A stretch of 4,823 nucleotides of DNA from IMG/VR virus record IMGVR_UViG_2703718815_000008, one strand, 5' to 3'. A program made the translations under genes and the position numbers. Below, in pieces: positions 161 through 4,685 of this stretch (the first letter of the stretch is position 1; each line of letters starts with the position of its first letter). This DNA is from a virus (lineage: Duplodnaviria; Heunggongvirae; Uroviricota; Caudoviricetes). Under the pieces are notes generated by a model. That model made no database searches and had not been told where the DNA came from. It saw only the letters and a program-made list of their open reading frames with translations.

Positions 161-403
161 ATGTATACCTATAAAATGATTCAGGTGCCGCCGAATATTT
201 CTGTAAAGGCAAAAGATAATAAAGCGGGGGTAGCTGCTGCATATCTTCAGAATGTTGTTAATGAACAGGCGGCGGATGGCTGGGAATTTCAACGGGTTGA
301 TACGATTGGTATAGAAGAGCAGCCGGGGTGTTTCGGTGGCGGAAAGGCGCAGTTTTTTCAATACTATGTGATTACTTTTAGAAAAAAAGTATCAGATGCT
401 TAA
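161..403 (+). CDS. Small cytoplasmic protein, DUF4177-like (80 aa)
   Basis: ORF with strong RBS AAAGGAG 8 nt upstream of ATG. N-terminal M-Y-x-Y-K and central GWEF...V motif match my recollection of the DUF4177 family. Stop overlaps the start of the next gene by 8 nt (translational coupling). Confidence 0.65.
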   Translation: MYTYKMIQVPPNISVKAKDNKAGVAAAYLQNVVNEQAADGWEFQRVDTIGIEEQPGCFGGGKAQFFQYYVITFRKKVSDA

Positions 404-629
404 ATGGCTTAGTATACGTCTGATTCTTTATTATCGTGCTCATGCGCCAGCCAGCATTCGTAACAGATGTCGTTATACTCCAAGCTGTTCGGCTTACACT
501 TTGGTGTCAATAAGGCGCTATGGCTTTTTTGAAGGCTGGCGATTAGGATTGAGCCGGATTTATCGCTGTCGTCCGCCTAATGGTGGTGCAGATTACCCTC
601 CTCATATTTGTAAATGTCGCAAATCGTGA
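396..629 (+). CDS. yidD: YidD-family protein (membrane protein insertion efficiency factor-like), stand-alone paralog
   Basis: 77-aa ORF carrying the YidD/haemolytic-domain signature: CRYTPSCSAY ... G...GW.LG..RI.RC.P..GGxDxPP. Not in the canonical rnpA-yidD-yidC context; here coupled to a DUF4177-like gene. Confidence 0.85.
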   Translation: MLKWLSIRLILYYRAHAPASIRNRCRYTPSCSAYTLVSIRRYGFFEGWRLGLSRIYRCRPPNGGADYPPHICKCRKS

Positions 630-680: not shown

Positions 681-726
681 GGGATGTGTATAGGGTGCCT
701 TATCGGCCTTACCCTGGCAACCGATT

Positions 727-750
727 GACGGGGAAGTTGCCTTCCCCGTC
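727..750. other. Perfect 10-bp stem / 4-nt loop hairpin in the hok 3' UTR (probable mRNA-stabilising or fbi-region stem-loop)
   Basis: GACGGGGAAG-ttgc-CTTCCCCGTC, perfectly complementary arms, immediately downstream of the hok stop codon on the - strand. On the + strand it is followed by GCGGTTTTCTT, so it could also act as a + strand terminator. Confidence 0.5.
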
Positions 751-759
751 GCGGTTTTC

Positions 760-900
760 TTACTGTCTACATTGTAAGAACGCCGCAAACTCCGCTCCCC
801 AGAAGCTCATCCGTATCTCACACAGTGAACCGTGTAGCATCCAGATGATGAGGATTGCCGTTACGCAGAACGTAATGGCCGTAAGCGATTTTTGCGACAT
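760..900 (-). CDS. hok: Hok/Gef-family type I toxin (46 aa), absent from the ORF track because it is under the length cut-off
   Basis: Reverse-complement translation: MSQKSLTAITFCVTAILIIWMLHGSLCEIRMSFWGAEFAAFLQCRQ. One N-terminal transmembrane segment followed by SLCEIR and E.AAF motifs, as in Hok of plasmid R1 (..SLCEIRYRDGHREVAAF..) and E. coli HokA/HokC. SD-like AAGGAG about 8 nt upstream. Confidence 0.85.
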   Translation of the reverse strand: MSQKSLTAITFCVTAILIIWMLHGSLCEIRMSFWGAEFAAFLQCRQ

Positions 901-1003
901 AGCGCTTGCTCCTTTTTCGGGGAGGCGCTAACCTACGACTTGCGAAGGTTGTATGGCTAGGGCCTCGGGTTAACGTTAAAGTTGACTCGGGGCCTTTCCA
1001 CAT
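818..1003 (-). CDS. mok: mok-like overlapping reading frame (modulation of killing) of the hok locus
   Basis: 61-codon frame starting at ATG 1003 and overlapping the first 83 nt of hok in a different frame, as in mok/hok of R1. Its start lies upstream of the conserved leader hairpin, unlike R1, so the exact start is uncertain. Confidence 0.4.
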   Translation of the reverse strand: MWKGPESTLTLTRGPSHTTFASRRLAPPRKRSKRYVAKIAYGHYVLRNGNPHHLDATRFTV

Positions 1004-1008
1004 TCGGC
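941..1008 (+). ncRNA. sok: Predicted Sok-like antisense RNA (about 65 nt)
   Basis: Inference by analogy to R1 Sok. Candidate + strand promoter TTGCTC (906-911)-N17-TAACCT (929-934), TSS near 941. Imperfect hairpin 961-994 (GGCCTCGGG...CTCGGGGCC) followed by a U-rich stretch (995-1004). Antisense to the hok leader and mok start. Boundaries approximate. Confidence 0.3.
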
Positions 1009-1053
1009 CTTCGGGTATTCCCTCCAGCCATCAGCCGAAAGGCACCCGCGCGA

Positions 1054-1083
1054 ATTCTAGCCTGGTTTTTTCCCTTGTTTCAA
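1054..1083 (-). promoter_or_regulatory. Predicted hok promoter (TTGAAA-N18-TAGAAT on the - strand)
   Basis: -35 TTGAAA (rc of 1078-1083), -10 TAGAAT (rc of 1054-1059), giving a TSS near 1048. The predicted 5' end GGGUGCC (rc of 1041-1047) is perfectly complementary to GGCACCC (rc of 693-699) in the 3' UTR, matching the tac/fbi end-pairing typical of hok mRNAs. Predicted mRNA about 400 nt, as for R1 hok. Confidence 0.45.
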
Positions 1084-1087
1084 TCCG

Positions 1088-1117
1088 TTGAGACTTATCA
1101 GCCTTCTGATGTAAAAT
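1088..1117 (+). promoter_or_regulatory. Candidate + strand promoter divergent from the hok promoter (TTGAGA-N18-TAAAAT)
   Basis: -35 TTGAGA (1088-1093), -10 TAAAAT (1112-1117) with TG immediately upstream. Would give a transcript of about 64 nt ending at the 1164-1187 terminator. Confidence 0.3.
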
Positions 1118-1163: not shown

Positions 1164-1187
1164 GCCGGCGTTCGCGCCGGTTTTTTT
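1164..1187 (+). terminator. Rho-independent terminator (+ strand)
   Basis: GC-rich stem GCCGGCG (1164-1170) / CGCCGGC with loop TTCG, followed by T7 (1181-1187). On the - strand there is no U-tract after the stem, so it is oriented for + strand transcripts. Confidence 0.6.
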
Positions 1188-1355
1188 CGTCCTGTTGCTG
1201 CATAGATCGTCATGCGCGATCGAGGCGCGGTATTGATCCTTTTTTCAGTTTAATTTTGACTCTCAATTTTACGCAGGCCGCGCCGCGTCTGGCTTCGTTG
1301 TTTGACGATTTTTTGATGCGATCCTTTCGTGATCGTTTCCCGTCTCGCGTAAAGT

Positions 1356-1451
1356 ATGAAAACTCTTTTAATATCATGCGGTTTTATTGCCCCTGCCATT
1401 TATGCGATCGTAAAAACCACTCTGAAAACTGCAAAAAATTTCAAAGCGTGA
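1356..1451 (+). CDS. Hypothetical 31-aa hydrophobic peptide (speculative small membrane protein or type I toxin-like ORF)
   Basis: ATG...TGA frame translating to MKTLLISCGFIAPAIYAIVKTTLKTAKNFKA: a hydrophobic core plus a Lys-rich C-terminal tail. Weak or absent SD and rare codons (ATA, TTA). The 3' end overlaps a perfect palindrome. May be non-coding. Confidence 0.15.
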   Translation: MKTLLISCGFIAPAIYAIVKTTLKTAKNFKA

Positions 1452-1563
1452 AATTTCAGATCTCCGCTTTTCCCTCAGTTGCTGCGCGGGCTGGCGGTCA
1501 GTTTTGCACGGCAGAAAACTGAAAAAGTGTTTCGACACAAAACCCGCGGGTTGGAGGGGGTAG

Positions 1564-1613
1564 CGCGGTTTACGTCACCTCACACTTTACGTCACACCGT
1601 TTACGCGGTGTGT
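1564..1613. repeat. Iteron-like direct repeats (TTTACGTCAC x2 plus TTTACGCGG) with an embedded 7-bp inverted repeat
   Basis: Seen in sequence: TTTACGTCAC at 1569-1578 and 1586-1595, TTTACGCGG at 1600-1608 (spacings 17 and 14 bp). Inverted repeat CACACCG (1593-1599) / CGGTGTG (1607-1613). Function unknown. Confidence 0.5.
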
Positions 1614-1665: not shown

Positions 1666-1692
1666 AAAAACGCACGGTCGGAACCGTGCGTT
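1666..1692 (-). terminator. Rho-independent terminator of the - strand operon (downstream of the 565-aa gene)
   Basis: Stem AACGCACGG (1669-1677) / CCGTGCGTT (1684-1692) with loop TCGGAA. On the - strand the stem is followed by a U5 tract (complement of A1666-1670), about 40 nt after the stop codon at 1731-1733. Confidence 0.55.
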
Positions 1693-1730: not shown

Positions 1731-3428
1731 TCAGGCGATAAGGTCGCCGTATTTTTCGCGCAGGCTCGTAGCCTGCAGGGCATCTGCGGCAAGTTCGCCG
1801 CTGTTCATTGGTGCGCCAGTGTTGTTGTGGGTGTGGTTTGCTGTGTGCGTGGCCAGCAATTGAATCAGATCCAGAATATCAATCAACAACGTCAGCAGAT
1901 TAAGTTCGGATTTTTCCCGTGAGCCACCGCGACCAATAAATACTGTCGGGGCTGTAAACTTCAGACCGCCGTCCGCCCGGCATGTTCTGCGGCCTCCCAC
2001 GTTTTCAGTCAGGTCCTGCTCAATTGTGGATATTGTCCCTTTGAGTTTAGTCAGCAAATCCTGCGCTACCATCTGGATATGCTCGCTGGCTGCGATCGCG
2101 TAATGGCCGGTAGTAAGGTGCTCTATTTGTCCTGCCGCCAGCTTGCTGGTTCCCAGAACACTGGTTATGTCGTTTGCCCGTACTGTGGTTGTTCTGGTTG
2201 TTGTGGTGCGCTCTTCTGCATCACTGTTAATTGTGCGGGTGGCTGACTGCTCCCTGATTTGCTGGTCTGTTTCTCTGTGCCAGCTTCCGTCAGTCGTGAC
2301 GCGCTGAAACACTTCTGCGCGCTGTTGCTGCAGTTGTTCGCCGGGCTTTACATCAGGCAGGTTATGGCCAGCAGGTAAGATTTGCCTGATAACAGGTTTA
2401 TCCGGGCGCCCTTCAATGTTAGATATTTCCACGATGGTGCCTGCCGGCGGGTAGGCAAAACATCCCGCCTCGCTACCAGCCATCGGGACGGGGAGTGGGA
2501 CTGCCGGGTAAACAGGCGTATCGCTTTTATCGTTGCCGTCCTCATCGAGCAGTTGCACGTCCACGGCGTAGCGTGGACGGAAGCTGTCGGCCACATCGCC
2601 CAGGGTGGCGGATTCCGTTGGTGCAATGACGCGCGCCAGCCTGGTGTGTAGTGTGCCGCTGGCCAGTTCCGGGAACTGTGTTTCCATCTGTCTGCGTAAT
2701 GGTGATTTGGAGACAGGGCTGCCCGTGACGGTAAGGCGCTCCCACGTCAGAGTCATTTTCTCGTTGTTGAGGGCTACGCGGGTAATACGCCCGGTGGGAA
2801 GATTCACGCCCGGTCGCACAGTTTCCATGAACATGATGTCGATGCTGTTTCCGCCGCTTTGCCCGAGAGCGTACTGTTGCGGAATATCCGGCATCGTAAT
2901 ACTGGCAAATCGTGAATCAGCGGCGCTTCCCACAAATACAGAACCGTCCGGCATTGGGTGCCAGACGTAATCGCTGATACTGAATGCGCGCCCCAGCTGG
3001 CTGAGTAGCTGCGTTCCGCTGCCGCTGTGGGTGATGTAGGGGGTTGGTGTGTTGACATAATCCGCGTCCGGGGTGATAAAAACGATGCCGCTTTGTCGTC
3101 CCAGATTATCTAACACCTCCCGCAACGTCGGGTGTTGCATGGAGCAGGGGAAATCAAAATCCAGCACAGCAGCTGCTTCACGGATAAAAAGGCGGCGCGA
3201 ACCATTTTCGGCGGGTTGGTCGCGTTCAACGTAGCCGGAGAAATAGCGCCAGACTTCACCGTCACGGCCGAGATCAATTTGTACCATTGCGCCGGCAAGG
3301 CTTTTTTCTGGTGACAGATTATTAACAGAAATGAAGCCACGACCGGCAGCATTCAGGGTAAGAACAAGGCTTATATCGGCAATTTCCACCCGTTCGCCAT
3401 TAATCATGCAGCGTTGTATCAATTTCAT
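1731..3428 (-). CDS. Hypothetical 565-aa protein; tentatively a phage-tail-like structural protein (baseplate hub/spike- or fibre-like), last gene of the operon
   Basis: Long ORF with strong RBS GAGGAAGGG and an ATGA start/stop overlap with the upstream gene. No Walker A motif, no signal peptide. Thr-rich tract TTTTRTTTV and His-rich C-terminal segment LIQLLATHTANHTHNNTG (HxH-type motifs occur at metal-binding tips of trimeric phage spikes and fibres). An N-terminal segment, FSGYVE...TLREVLDNL...GIVF, loosely resembles gpD/gp27/VgrG hub motifs. Product is inference only. Confidence 0.8.
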   Translation of the reverse strand: MKLIQRCMINGERVEIADISLVLTLNAAGRGFISVNNLSPEKSLAGAMVQIDLGRDGEVWRYFSGYVERDQPAENGSRRLFIREAAAVLDFDFPCSMQHPTLREVLDNLGRQSGIVFITPDADYVNTPTPYITHSGSGTQLLSQLGRAFSISDYVWHPMPDGSVFVGSAADSRFASITMPDIPQQYALGQSGGNSIDIMFMETVRPGVNLPTGRITRVALNNEKMTLTWERLTVTGSPVSKSPLRRQMETQFPELASGTLHTRLARVIAPTESATLGDVADSFRPRYAVDVQLLDEDGNDKSDTPVYPAVPLPVPMAGSEAGCFAYPPAGTIVEISNIEGRPDKPVIRQILPAGHNLPDVKPGEQLQQQRAEVFQRVTTDGSWHRETDQQIREQSATRTINSDAEERTTTTRTTTVRANDITSVLGTSKLAAGQIEHLTTGHYAIAASEHIQMVAQDLLTKLKGTISTIEQDLTENVGGRRTCRADGGLKFTAPTVFIGRGGSREKSELNLLTLLIDILDLIQLLATHTANHTHNNTGAPMNSGELAADALQATSLREKYGDLIA

Positions 3429-4000
3429 GTTTTCCCTTCCTCTTTCACGCTCCCGATGCCAACAGCATCCAGACCAGAGCCAACGGCATCATTGATTTTT
3501 TTCCAGAACGAACTTTGCGTATTCATGCCTTTGTCTGGTGCCTGTTCGCTACCGTTCTGGGTCTGCTGTCTGGCGATGGTTTTCTGCGAACCGCTGCGTG
3601 CGGATGCTTTCTCTGGCACGCTTAATTTTTCCCTGAGAGTAAAGGTAACCTGCCAGTGCATTTTTCCCTGTTGTTCCGTGGCATCAATGCCACCAGAAAA
3701 TACCCCCTGTCGCATATTGATTGCCTTCGCGGTAGCGTTAGCAATGCGATATGTTTTTTTAGCACCGTTGCTTTCTGTTGCCTCCGCAAGCTGAAAAATA
3801 CGGGTCAGAATAGCTTCATCATTAAAATCAATAACCCCCGACACGCGCAGCTCTTTAGCCTTGTTTCCCTGCTGGGCGCTCGTGGTGCTGGTTGACTGTC
3901 CGGACATATCTTTGTCCGGTAGTTGCATGGTGGCGCTGACGGTGATGTTGCGCAGCAGAATGGCTTCCCCGTCAAGCGCAAGGACAATCATCTGGGTCAT
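3425..4000 (-). CDS. Hypothetical 191-aa protein (Ser/Thr/Gln/Gly-rich; possibly a phage-tail-associated structural protein)
   Basis: ORF with excellent RBS AAGGGAGG 7 nt upstream of ATG 4000. Stop overlaps the start of the 565-aa gene (ATGA). No signal peptide, transmembrane segment or nucleotide-binding motif. Product unknown. Confidence 0.75.
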   Translation of the reverse strand: MTQMIVLALDGEAILLRNITVSATMQLPDKDMSGQSTSTTSAQQGNKAKELRVSGVIDFNDEAILTRIFQLAEATESNGAKKTYRIANATAKAINMRQGVFSGGIDATEQQGKMHWQVTFTLREKLSVPEKASARSGSQKTIARQQTQNGSEQAPDKGMNTQSSFWKKINDAVGSGLDAVGIGSVKEEGKT

Positions 4001-4685
4001 GTAGTGCCTCCCTTAGTGATGAGAGATTATCGCCGACGAACAGCATCACAGCTGTAAAAACCCACTCGGGGTGTGGGATGTTTTTTTGTATCAGCACTGC
4101 AGCCTGGCTAAGGGCTCCCTTGTAGCAAAAGCGCCACACCGGGCAAAATTTTTGCCGGAGTGCAGCCTGCTGATCAGCGATTTCCTGTAAGGCTTTATCT
4201 CTCGCATTCATGAACTGATGCAGTGATGATGACAATGTTTCCGGTGATGTGGCGGCAGGAGTGGCTGCCTGTGCAATGGTTGCCGCCAGCGACATGCTGC
4301 GAGTGGTCTGTGTCGACAGCATTATCGGTTCCGGAAGTGATGTTGCCGGTCTGGCGGGGATTTGCATTCTGCTGATGGCCAGTGAAAGCTGGCTGGAGAT
4401 CATGCGGGACATTCGTCCCACCTCCGGCAACGGAAATGCGCCTGAAAATTGCCTGGCGAGTGATAAAAACTCGCCAGCAGAAGGAGCGCAAAATAACAGC
4501 GCCACAATGTCCTTTTCTGTGTTTTCTTTCAGATAGGGTAAAAGTGCAGATACAGCATTTTCGGGGCTGAGATAACGCCCCGATGGTTTGATGTTTCCGG
4601 TATTTTCTGACCATGGATGCAGGCAAACCACAGAGCATTTAATGTTCATGGCTGACGGGCGCAGAATTGCCTTTTCCCATTTCAT
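3972..4685 (-). CDS. Hypothetical 237-aa protein with two domains joined by a low-complexity Ala/Thr/Ser/Pro linker
   Basis: ORF with RBS GGAGAG. Start overlaps the stop of the upstream gene (ATGA) and the 3' end overlaps the 191-aa gene by 29 nt in another frame. No recognisable catalytic motif. Product unknown. Confidence 0.7.
   Translation of the reverse strand: MKWEKAILRPSAMNIKCSVVCLHPWSENTGNIKPSGRYLSPENAVSALLPYLKENTEKDIVALLFCAPSAGEFLSLARQFSGAFPLPEVGRMSRMISSQLSLAISRMQIPARPATSLPEPIMLSTQTTRSMSLAATIAQAATPAATSPETLSSSLHQFMNARDKALQEIADQQAALRQKFCPVWRFCYKGALSQAAVLIQKNIPHPEWVFTAVMLFVGDNLSSLREALHDPDDCPCA

Follow-up and report, generated by a model that had tools for sequence, protein, structure and literature searches.

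Genes and features at the locus

We analysed a 4,823-bp stretch of tailed-phage DNA (IMG/VR record IMGVR_UViG_2703718815_000008), referred to below as the window. It comes from a prophage of the HP1/P2-like group (Peduoviridae) and forms the right end of that element. The subject is a cluster of seven GATC (Dam) sites in the gap between a hok/sok locus and the last tail gene, a gap that very probably holds the cohesive-end (cos) packaging region of the phage. The window is laid out as follows.

161-403 and 396-629, plus strand: two small cargo open reading frames (ORFs), DUF4177-like and YidD-like (ORF list, domain search).
~690-1075, minus strand: hok/sok type I toxin-antitoxin locus, with the Hok coding sequence at 760-900 and a promoter-like site at 1083-1054 (Pfam HOK_GEF, Rfam).
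1100-1730, no strand: gap of 630 bp without an ORF (ORF list).
1164-1190, plus strand: intrinsic terminator facing cos from the cargo side; the stem is kept with an altered loop in an 85% relative (L030).
1205-1462, no strand: array of seven GATC sites, at offsets -355, -342, -325, -240, -229, -154 and -101 from the GTAG at 1560.
1669-1692, minus strand: intrinsic terminator of the tail operon, which insulates cos from the other side (inverted repeat and terminator prediction).
1731-3428, minus strand: last tail/baseplate gene, homologous to HP1 orf35 and the landmark that precedes cos (tblastn).
1731-3428, 3425-4000 and 3972-4685, minus strand: end of the tail operon, running leftward (ORF list).

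The GATC sites begin at 1205, 1218, 1235, 1320, 1331, 1406 and 1459, exactly where the first-pass annotation had placed them, and make up 7 of the 14 sites of the window within 258 bp. Since the count for the whole window is ordinary (14 observed, 15.2 expected), the concentration is local. Of 5000 shuffles of the window that preserved its dinucleotides, only 6 had a 258-bp stretch with at least seven GATC, which confirmed the reported density, and none of the other palindromic tetramers in the window was concentrated in this way. With the known frequency of GATC in E. coli, a Poisson estimate nevertheless predicts some ten chance clusters of this density in an enterobacterial genome, as would be expected if the cluster were a chance or compositional feature without function. 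Because of these chance clusters the density alone proves little, and the significance of the cluster has to come from conservation.

The sites of the window read GATCG four times, GATCC twice and GATCT once, and the spacing of close pairs is 11-17 bp. With a helical repeat of 10.5 bp, the phases of all seven sites span no more than 0.38 turn; this phasing is suggestive only, as it depends on an assumed helical repeat over 350 bp. The exact repeat noted in the first pass was present (TTGATGCGATC / TTTATGCGATC at 1313-1323 and 1399-1409, 86 bp apart), as was its variant ATGCGCGATC at 1212-1221. The T-run said to precede each copy was found at 1316 and, weakly (TTT), at 1402, and was missing at 1212.

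The gap resembles the cos junction of HP1-type phages

A blastn search with 1090-1735 against the phage collection gave no match, and relatives were therefore reached through the neighbouring protein encoded at 1731-3428. Its tblastn homologs were the HP1 orf35 'baseplate protein' and proteins of HP2, phiO18P, K139, ESSI-2 and many other phages, and in HP1, HP2, phiO18P, K139, ESSI-2 and many others the orf35-type gene is the final gene before the genome end. A Pfam search with the same product returned no match; the neighbouring ORF at 3425-4000 matched HP1_ORF34. We identify the 1731-3428 product as a baseplate or spike protein of the tail, of the HP1 orf35 type. The RefSeq names of this homolog (L001, 13079-14776) differ between genomes: one has 'type VI secretion system Vgr family protein', others 'hypothetical protein'.

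According to the HP1 annotation, the left cohesive end occupies bases 1-9, attP lies at 251-694, and orf35 ends 192 bp before the right end. In phiO18P, a 16-nt cos is annotated 200 bp after the orf35 homolog. In the window, the distance from the 1731-3428 gene to the corresponding G-run is ~175 bp (HP1, 192 bp; phiO18P, 200 bp). When the HP1 ends were joined in the orientation of the window, the junction read ...AACTGAAAAAACACAAATTTTTAACGTAAATTCGGTGGGGAAGGA|AGTGGATTTTCCGTG...TTTTTACGTG...TTTCCGTGG, and the window at 1516-1611 reads AAACTGAAAAAGTGTTTCGACACAAAACCCGCGGGTTGGAGGGGGTAGCGCGGTTTACGTCAC...CTTTACGTCAC...GTTTACGCGGTG. The two share order and spacing, namely AACTGAAAAA, ~25 nt, a G-rich end and three TTTNCGT repeats (alignment A3, which joins the window lineage with the HP1 junction, and visual register). 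Because the order and spacing of the HP1 junction match, the cohesive end of the window is predicted at ~1552-1560.

Two genome records break at this place. The ESSI2_ev015 record is interrupted at the cosN spot (GGCGGGTGC | GTAGCGCC), with a Nextera adapter remaining, and that of Pseudomonas phage UFJF_PfPro ends at the same spot with GGCGGGAGGGGG. We take the start of the ESSI2_ev015 record (Escherichia phage; L010, NC_049395 / LR597649, bases ~16-48) to be the Nextera transposase adapter TCGTCGGCAGCGTCAGATGTGTATAAGAGACAG, a contaminating sequence in a RefSeq phage genome that stands exactly at the physical end.

With high confidence, although from sequence comparison, we assign the non-coding stretch 1200-1615 as a cos region laid out like the annotated HP1 and phiO18P cos junctions. 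A phage cos packaging region, which is the context that explains the cluster, had not been considered in the first pass. Its predicted parts are listed below.

1200-1551, no strand: left arm of cos, becoming the left end of virion DNA; non-coding, with spacing conserved from Escherichia to Edwardsiella.
1241-1251 and 1452-1457: inverted copies of the GAAAACTGAAAAA motif, reading TTTTTCAGTTT and TTTCAG (repeats I1 and I4; direct repeat D3).
1274-1295: older copy of the GC-box module, CAGGCCGCGCCGCGTCTGGCTT; each copy is preceded by a TTTCAGTT element.
1346-1386, no strand: conserved CGCGTAAAGT followed by A/T-rich TTTTAATATCATGCGGTTTTA, between GATC pairs; the ACGTAAAG and TATATCA blocks are invariant in alignment A2 (six sequences including Edwardsiella).
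1476-1500, plus strand: GC box CAGTTGCTGCGCGGGCTGGCGGTCA, with invariant columns in A2.
1514-1526, plus strand: GAAAACTGAAAAA motif beside cosN, with a second copy at 1424-1436; invariant in A2 and A3.
1552-1560, no strand: predicted cosN / cohesive end TGGAGGGGG, to within a few bases; aligns with the HP1 cohesive end GGGGAAGGA in this orientation.
1569-1609, plus strand: three direct repeats of the right arm, TTTACGTCAC at 1569-1578, TTTACGTCAC at 1586-1595 and TTTACGCGGT at 1600-1609 (repeat family D6).

The positions homologous to the right-arm repeats read TTTTCCGTG / TTTTTACGTG / TTTCCGTGG in HP1, and the TTTACG repeats of the window are candidate terminase-binding repeats. The block order of the left arm, which leads on to cargo genes, attP and int, is common to ESSI-2-like, Aeromonas and Vibrio phages. 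The GC box reads GGCGCGGTCTGGCGG in the ESSI-2-like and phiO18P arms and GGGGCGCGCCCTGGAGG in Pseudomonas phi3. Relatives of 1346-1386 read TATCAATGCATTA or TATCAAAGTTTTA, and this segment is a possible IHF-like bending site. Within the left arm, a module consisting of TTTCAGTT, ~25 nt and a GC box ending in CTGGC occurs twice, at 1244-1295 and 1473-1500, ~215 bp apart, which suggests that the arm grew by internal duplication.

The likeness to the cos of HP1 (and of phiO18P and K139) extends to its place between the orf35-type gene, 170-250 bp away, and attP/int or cargo, to the block order AACTGAAAAA, G-rich cohesive end and TTTNCGT repeats, and to one GATC context (AGATCTC...TCAGTTGC) common to HP1 and the window. 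The window lineage differs from HP1 in its longer and richer left arm with seven GATC sites against two or three, in the hok/sok locus and cargo between cos and attR, and in its P2-type head genes, with ogr directly after the portal gene.

A P2-type cos beside the portal gene was also considered. The ogr-portal gap of the E. coli relative is only 66 bp long, and a weak inverted GGGGAAAG-like match in it was judged insufficient. The lack of a convincing P2-type cos there fits a location of cos beyond the tail genes, which is where HP1 has it.

The same features bear on the reading of the cluster as a Dam/SeqA-controlled replication origin, suggested in the first pass, or as a plasmid-type maintenance site. 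Its GATC sites, A/T-rich tracts and repeats at 1569-1609 superficially resemble oriC or P1 oriR, and the relative prophage has ParM/ParR-like genes. However, those direct repeats are homologous to the ones flanking the HP1 cohesive end, and no DnaA box (TTATCCACA, at most one mismatch) was found in 1100-1730. The neighbours of the cluster are a tail gene and hok/sok, with no initiator gene or iteron set adjacent; the P2-type replication endonuclease gene of the relative prophage lies ~20 kb away, as do the par genes. In P2, the origin lies inside the replication endonuclease gene. We regard an origin at the cluster as highly improbable.

GATC sites recur at fixed distances from cosN

A scan of genome contigs returned three loci, and 80 further loci were gathered through the orf35-type protein. 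From these we obtained 51 non-redundant left arms, anchored on the cosN motif GTAG[CT]G[CA]. An ungapped information-content profile was blurred far from the anchor by offsets of 1-2 nt and was not used.

In A2, sites 1235, 1320 and 1331 were invariant and 1218, 1406 and 1459 nearly so (one of these three is shifted by 11 nt in Edwardsiella), while 1205 was variable. The Edwardsiella prophages kept six GATC sites in the same order even though their orf35 homolog is only 60% identical. The extended 8-mer was not conserved; relatives kept the GATC core, often with C or G next, and their flanks varied. Across the 51 arms the offsets recurred to the nucleotide, with GATC at -27 in 36 arms, at about -155 in 34, at about -166 in 25 and at about -230 in 29, and the bases flanking each fixed position differed widely between arms. 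The offsets from cosN by lineage were as follows.

Window lineage: -355, -342, -325, -240, -229, -154, -101.
ESSI-2-like lineage (protein ~48% identical): -229/-230, -165, -154, -27.
Subgroups: -240, -353, -342, -222/-201.

The 51 arms held 191 GATC sites, compared with 45 expected from dinucleotide shuffles and 59 from the coding density of the same loci. GATC was the most over-represented of the 256 tetramers in the arms (4.2-fold, with about 46 expected in this ranking), ahead of fragments of the AACTGAAAA motif and of the GC box; ACTG, CTGA and CAGT ranked second, fourth and fifth. The right arm usually had 0-1 GATC. Among more distant phages, Aeromonas phiO18P carries GATCCTTTCAGATCC...GGATCC at -124 to -96, and Vibrio K139 has five GATC within ~310 bp. 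The GATC sites are thus very probably under selection at fixed positions in the whole phage family of Dam-positive hosts. A functionless chance cluster, for which the Poisson estimate spoke, is effectively refuted by these data, since the sites persist across ~40% protein divergence, at fixed offsets in 51 arms, with GATC first of 256 tetramers.

The region was confirmed to be non-coding. The RefSeq annotation of the E. coli relatives has no feature from hok to the last tail gene, and all six frames contain 4-6 stops across the 51 arms. An 88-amino-acid ORF at 1256-1522 was rejected as a gene or pseudogene, being unconserved, with relatives that differ by 1-2-nt indels. A structured RNA was likewise rejected on the fold z-scores of 1195-1560 (-0.37 and +0.36 for the two strands), and an Rfam search of the whole window with E up to 1 returned nothing in 1100-1730.

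The distances also bear on the other reading proposed in the first pass, a Dam-dependent switch of the phase-variation type (pap, agn43, opvAB, gtr). Such a switch would control a neighbour, for instance hok/sok or the cargo, through Lrp, OxyR or a similar protein. The density of GATC and the ~85-bp spacing are typical of such switches, CGATCCTTT at 1319 is within one mismatch of the pap GATC box, and hok/sok with its promoter-like site lies 100-150 bp to the left. Against this, neither strand of 1190-1660 has a promoter-like site, the terminator at 1164-1190 stands between the cluster and the hok promoter, no OxyR-type site was found beyond trivial half-palindromes with two mismatches, and there is no downstream gene to regulate. 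The left-hand neighbours vary among relatives (hok, truncated hok, tRNA/att or other cargo) while the GATC offsets stay fixed to cosN at a constant distance, and the same array is carried by phages that lack hok (ESSI-2-like, Aeromonas and Vibrio). A switch of this kind is therefore very unlikely.

Orientation of the sites and their link to Dam

Toward cosN, 128 of the 191 sites read GATCC, and the mirror form GGATC was found in 9 of 191. GATC is a palindrome, and Dam or SeqA, acting as the only selective force, would give it no preferred direction. We therefore regard the sites as most likely the cores of protein-binding elements that have a direction and include a Dam target.

The 400-bp left arms of three relatives from Pseudomonas (phi3, phita81A/2 and an IMG/VR prophage) contained 1, 0 and 0 GATC, compared with an average of 2.9 per 400 bp in their coding DNA. 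All three kept the G-rich nick site and the GC box, and phi3 also kept the IHF-like site TATCAAAGTTTTA. To our knowledge, Pseudomonas has no Dam. Some phages of the family carry a methyltransferase of this type themselves: HP1 orf13 matched the Pfam Dam family, and gp29 of ESSI2_ev015 matched the D12 family of N6-adenine methyltransferases.

The orientation bias can also be taken to mean that the elements are ordinary sequence-specific sites bound by a phage protein such as the small terminase subunit, without regulation by Dam. A ratio of 128 GATCC to 9 GGATC is unexpected from Dam/SeqA selection alone, the sites adjoin other directional motifs such as AACTGAAAA, and the closest prophage has no methyltransferase of its own. 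This explanation accounts less well for flanks that, past the base after GATC, are highly variable at each fixed position, for the GATCG form of four of the seven window sites, and for the Pseudomonas relatives, which keep the arm layout but lose the GATCs, with TTTCAG-type motifs changed to TTTCAC. Dam-positive hosts methylate the sites in any case, and indifference of the binder to N6-methyladenine is not to be assumed without evidence. We consider sequence-specific sites free of Dam control rather unlikely. The general idea of the first-pass annotation, that Dam sites are embedded in repeated protein-binding DNA, is upheld by the fixed positions, the top tetramer rank and the loss in Pseudomonas; its specific proposals of an origin and a phase switch are not.

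A model of methylation-sensitive packaging at cos

We propose that the cos region at ~1200-1615 would consist of a nick site near 1552-1560, three TTTACG repeats on the tail side and a left arm of ~350 bp, with terminators on both sides. The left arm would combine AACTGAAAA/TTTCAGTT elements, two GC boxes, an A/T-rich bendable core and the seven GATC sites, which would form the cores of directional elements reading GATCC or GATCG. These may be bound by the P2-type terminase or by an accessory or host protein, and terminase assembly would possibly involve IHF-like bending and SeqA. The change between full and hemi-methylation after replication may then modulate assembly of the packaging complex or cleavage of cos, and SeqA could compete on hemimethylated pairs 11-17 bp apart. 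The logic would be that established for the seven TGATCA/G hexamers of P1 pac.

On balance we lean toward this combined reading, in which the array in the cos left arm is made of directional elements whose Dam methylation would tune terminase assembly or cos cleavage. Methylation control of packaging at the array, taken on its own, may operate with a likelihood just short of even; its support is indirect and comes from the GATC-poor arms in phages of a Dam-negative host and from the Dam genes that relatives carry. We infer both the identity of the binding protein and the relevance of the methylation state. More tentative is a general form, in which the array would be an epigenetic packaging checkpoint of HP1/P2-like cos phages in Dam-positive bacteria, read by terminase, SeqA or both; only one methylation state, such as the full methylation of DNA late in infection, would then permit assembly and cutting of cos.

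PMC10028697, which cites Sternberg & Coulby, describes P1 pac as having seven GATC hexamers (TGATCA/G), binding of PacA/PacB and IHF/HU, and methylation-regulated cleavage. The two systems are alike in having a packaging site with seven Dam sites in short directional repeats and host bending proteins, and P1 encodes its own Dam (PMC10028697), as do HP1 and ESSI-2-type phages. They are also alike in the multiple GATC sites inside repeated packaging-site elements, here with the 4.2-fold enrichment across the family. They differ in that P1 packages by the headful from pac through PacA/PacB, whereas here a cos is served by a P2-type terminase, and in the site itself, as 0 of 7 window sites read TGATCA/G and a preceding T is found only at 1235 (TGATCC) and 1331 (TGATCG-T).

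Several observations weigh against the model. In P1 the hexamers flank the cut within 161 bp and inside a gene, whereas here all GATC sites lie on one side of the nick, 100-355 bp away, in non-coding DNA, and a packaging requirement for the left arm beyond about -100 is putative. HP1-type phages have only 2-3 GATC, between -79 and -164; since HP1 attP starts 251 bp from the end, the distal sites at 1205-1235 may be specific to the window lineage. Given the strand bias, the sites could be recognised by their sequence alone, and methylation would then play no part. The Pseudomonas arms are closely related to each other and effectively represent one or two independent lineages. No phage Dam gene was found by tblastn in the closest E. 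coli relative prophage, so the prophage of the window would rely on host Dam. The strict IHF consensus had no match in the window. Finally, we infer the terminase genes of this phage from its relatives, as they lie outside the window itself.

In the lambda cos, which comprises cosQ, cosN and cosB with the IHF site I1 and the R repeats, a nick site is flanked by small-terminase repeats and a bend site over ~200-400 bp. The region described here has the same tripartite logic but no sequence or protein homology with lambda, and we know of no GATC array or Dam control in lambda cosB. Clustered, conserved GATC sites in protein-binding DNA are likewise shared with the Dam switches (pap, agn43, opvAB, gtr) and with oriC and P1 oriR; unlike those, the present array lacks a promoter or gene to regulate, as well as OxyR sites and DnaA boxes, and it is anchored to a packaging nick.

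Methylation-controlled packaging is textbook knowledge for one phage, the headful-packaging P1. A literature search, in which the older work on HP1 cos was incompletely covered, found no paper on GATC sites or arrays at HP1/P2-type cos. If the model is right, the P1 pac principle would extend to cos-type temperate phages of Enterobacterales, Vibrio, Aeromonas and Pasteurellaceae, and the presence of Dam-type methyltransferases, enzymes whose role is not well understood (PMC7556043), in many of these phages would be accounted for. The model predicts that the dam or seqA status of the host affects phage yield and transduction, and it would define a cos region for use in packaging vectors or in recognising satellites that mimic cos. 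In practice, where GATC sites cluster next to the end of a prophage, a packaging site should be looked for before an origin or phase switch is proposed, and an orf35-type gene followed by a G-rich GTAG motif is a landmark for locating cos in HP1-like prophages.

Prophage context and neighbouring genes

The best E. coli matches to the window were 94-97% identical, and the prophage of strain AJ1 was 97% identical. In AJ1 the element is a complete prophage inserted between pdxB and flk; in a second E. coli strain it adjoins serS. The AJ1 prophage begins with integrase, repressor, cox, replication endonuclease, parM/R, ogr and portal genes, and continues with large terminase, scaffold, P2-family capsid, small terminase and tail genes, the homolog of 1731-3428, the gap, hok, a cargo gene and the host junction. 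Its int thus lies at the opposite prophage end from cos. The head genes are P2-type and the tail module HP1-type. The P2/HP1-type terminase (gpP, gpM) and portal genes that it carries correspond to genes outside the 4.8-kb window.

In AJ1 (L003, 22209-23566) the portal gene is immediately followed, on its own strand and after a 66-bp gap, by the gene for an ogr/delta-like zinc-finger activator. This slot after portal is the cos position in P2, and the AJ1 layout is that of a rearranged hybrid of P2 head and HP1 tail.

The hok/sok locus lies between cos and the prophage end. Its Rfam sok match (887-1047) was sub-threshold, at 36.7 bits against a gathering score of 59. The module also occurs in P88-like and Stx phages, where it is annotated 'MokW-like host killing'. 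The cargo between hok and the host junction differs among relatives, with the DUF4177-like and YidD-like genes in the window and a DUF4875 gene in E. coli AJ1 (L001, 11206-11946); a YidD-like ORF is also found at the end of phage P88. The stretch between cos and attR is a hotspot for morons or cargo.

A promoter-like site, TTGAGA-18-TAAAAT (1088-1117, plus strand), diverges from the hok promoter and, together with the terminator at 1164-1190, could give a transcript of ~65 nt. The pair at 1088-1190, which is absent in Edwardsiella, may specify a small RNA or act as an insulator keeping transcription out of cos.

In the Edwardsiella anguillarum prophage (L006, ~6290-6640) the coding part of hok is missing. 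Repeated TGGCAGCA motifs, which are possible integrase arm sites, lie no more than ~250 bp from where the GATC array starts, as does a sequence that, judged by eye, we take to be tRNA-gene-like. Because these motifs and the tRNA-like sequence are so near, the left arm of the E. anguillarum cos appears to abut the attachment region.

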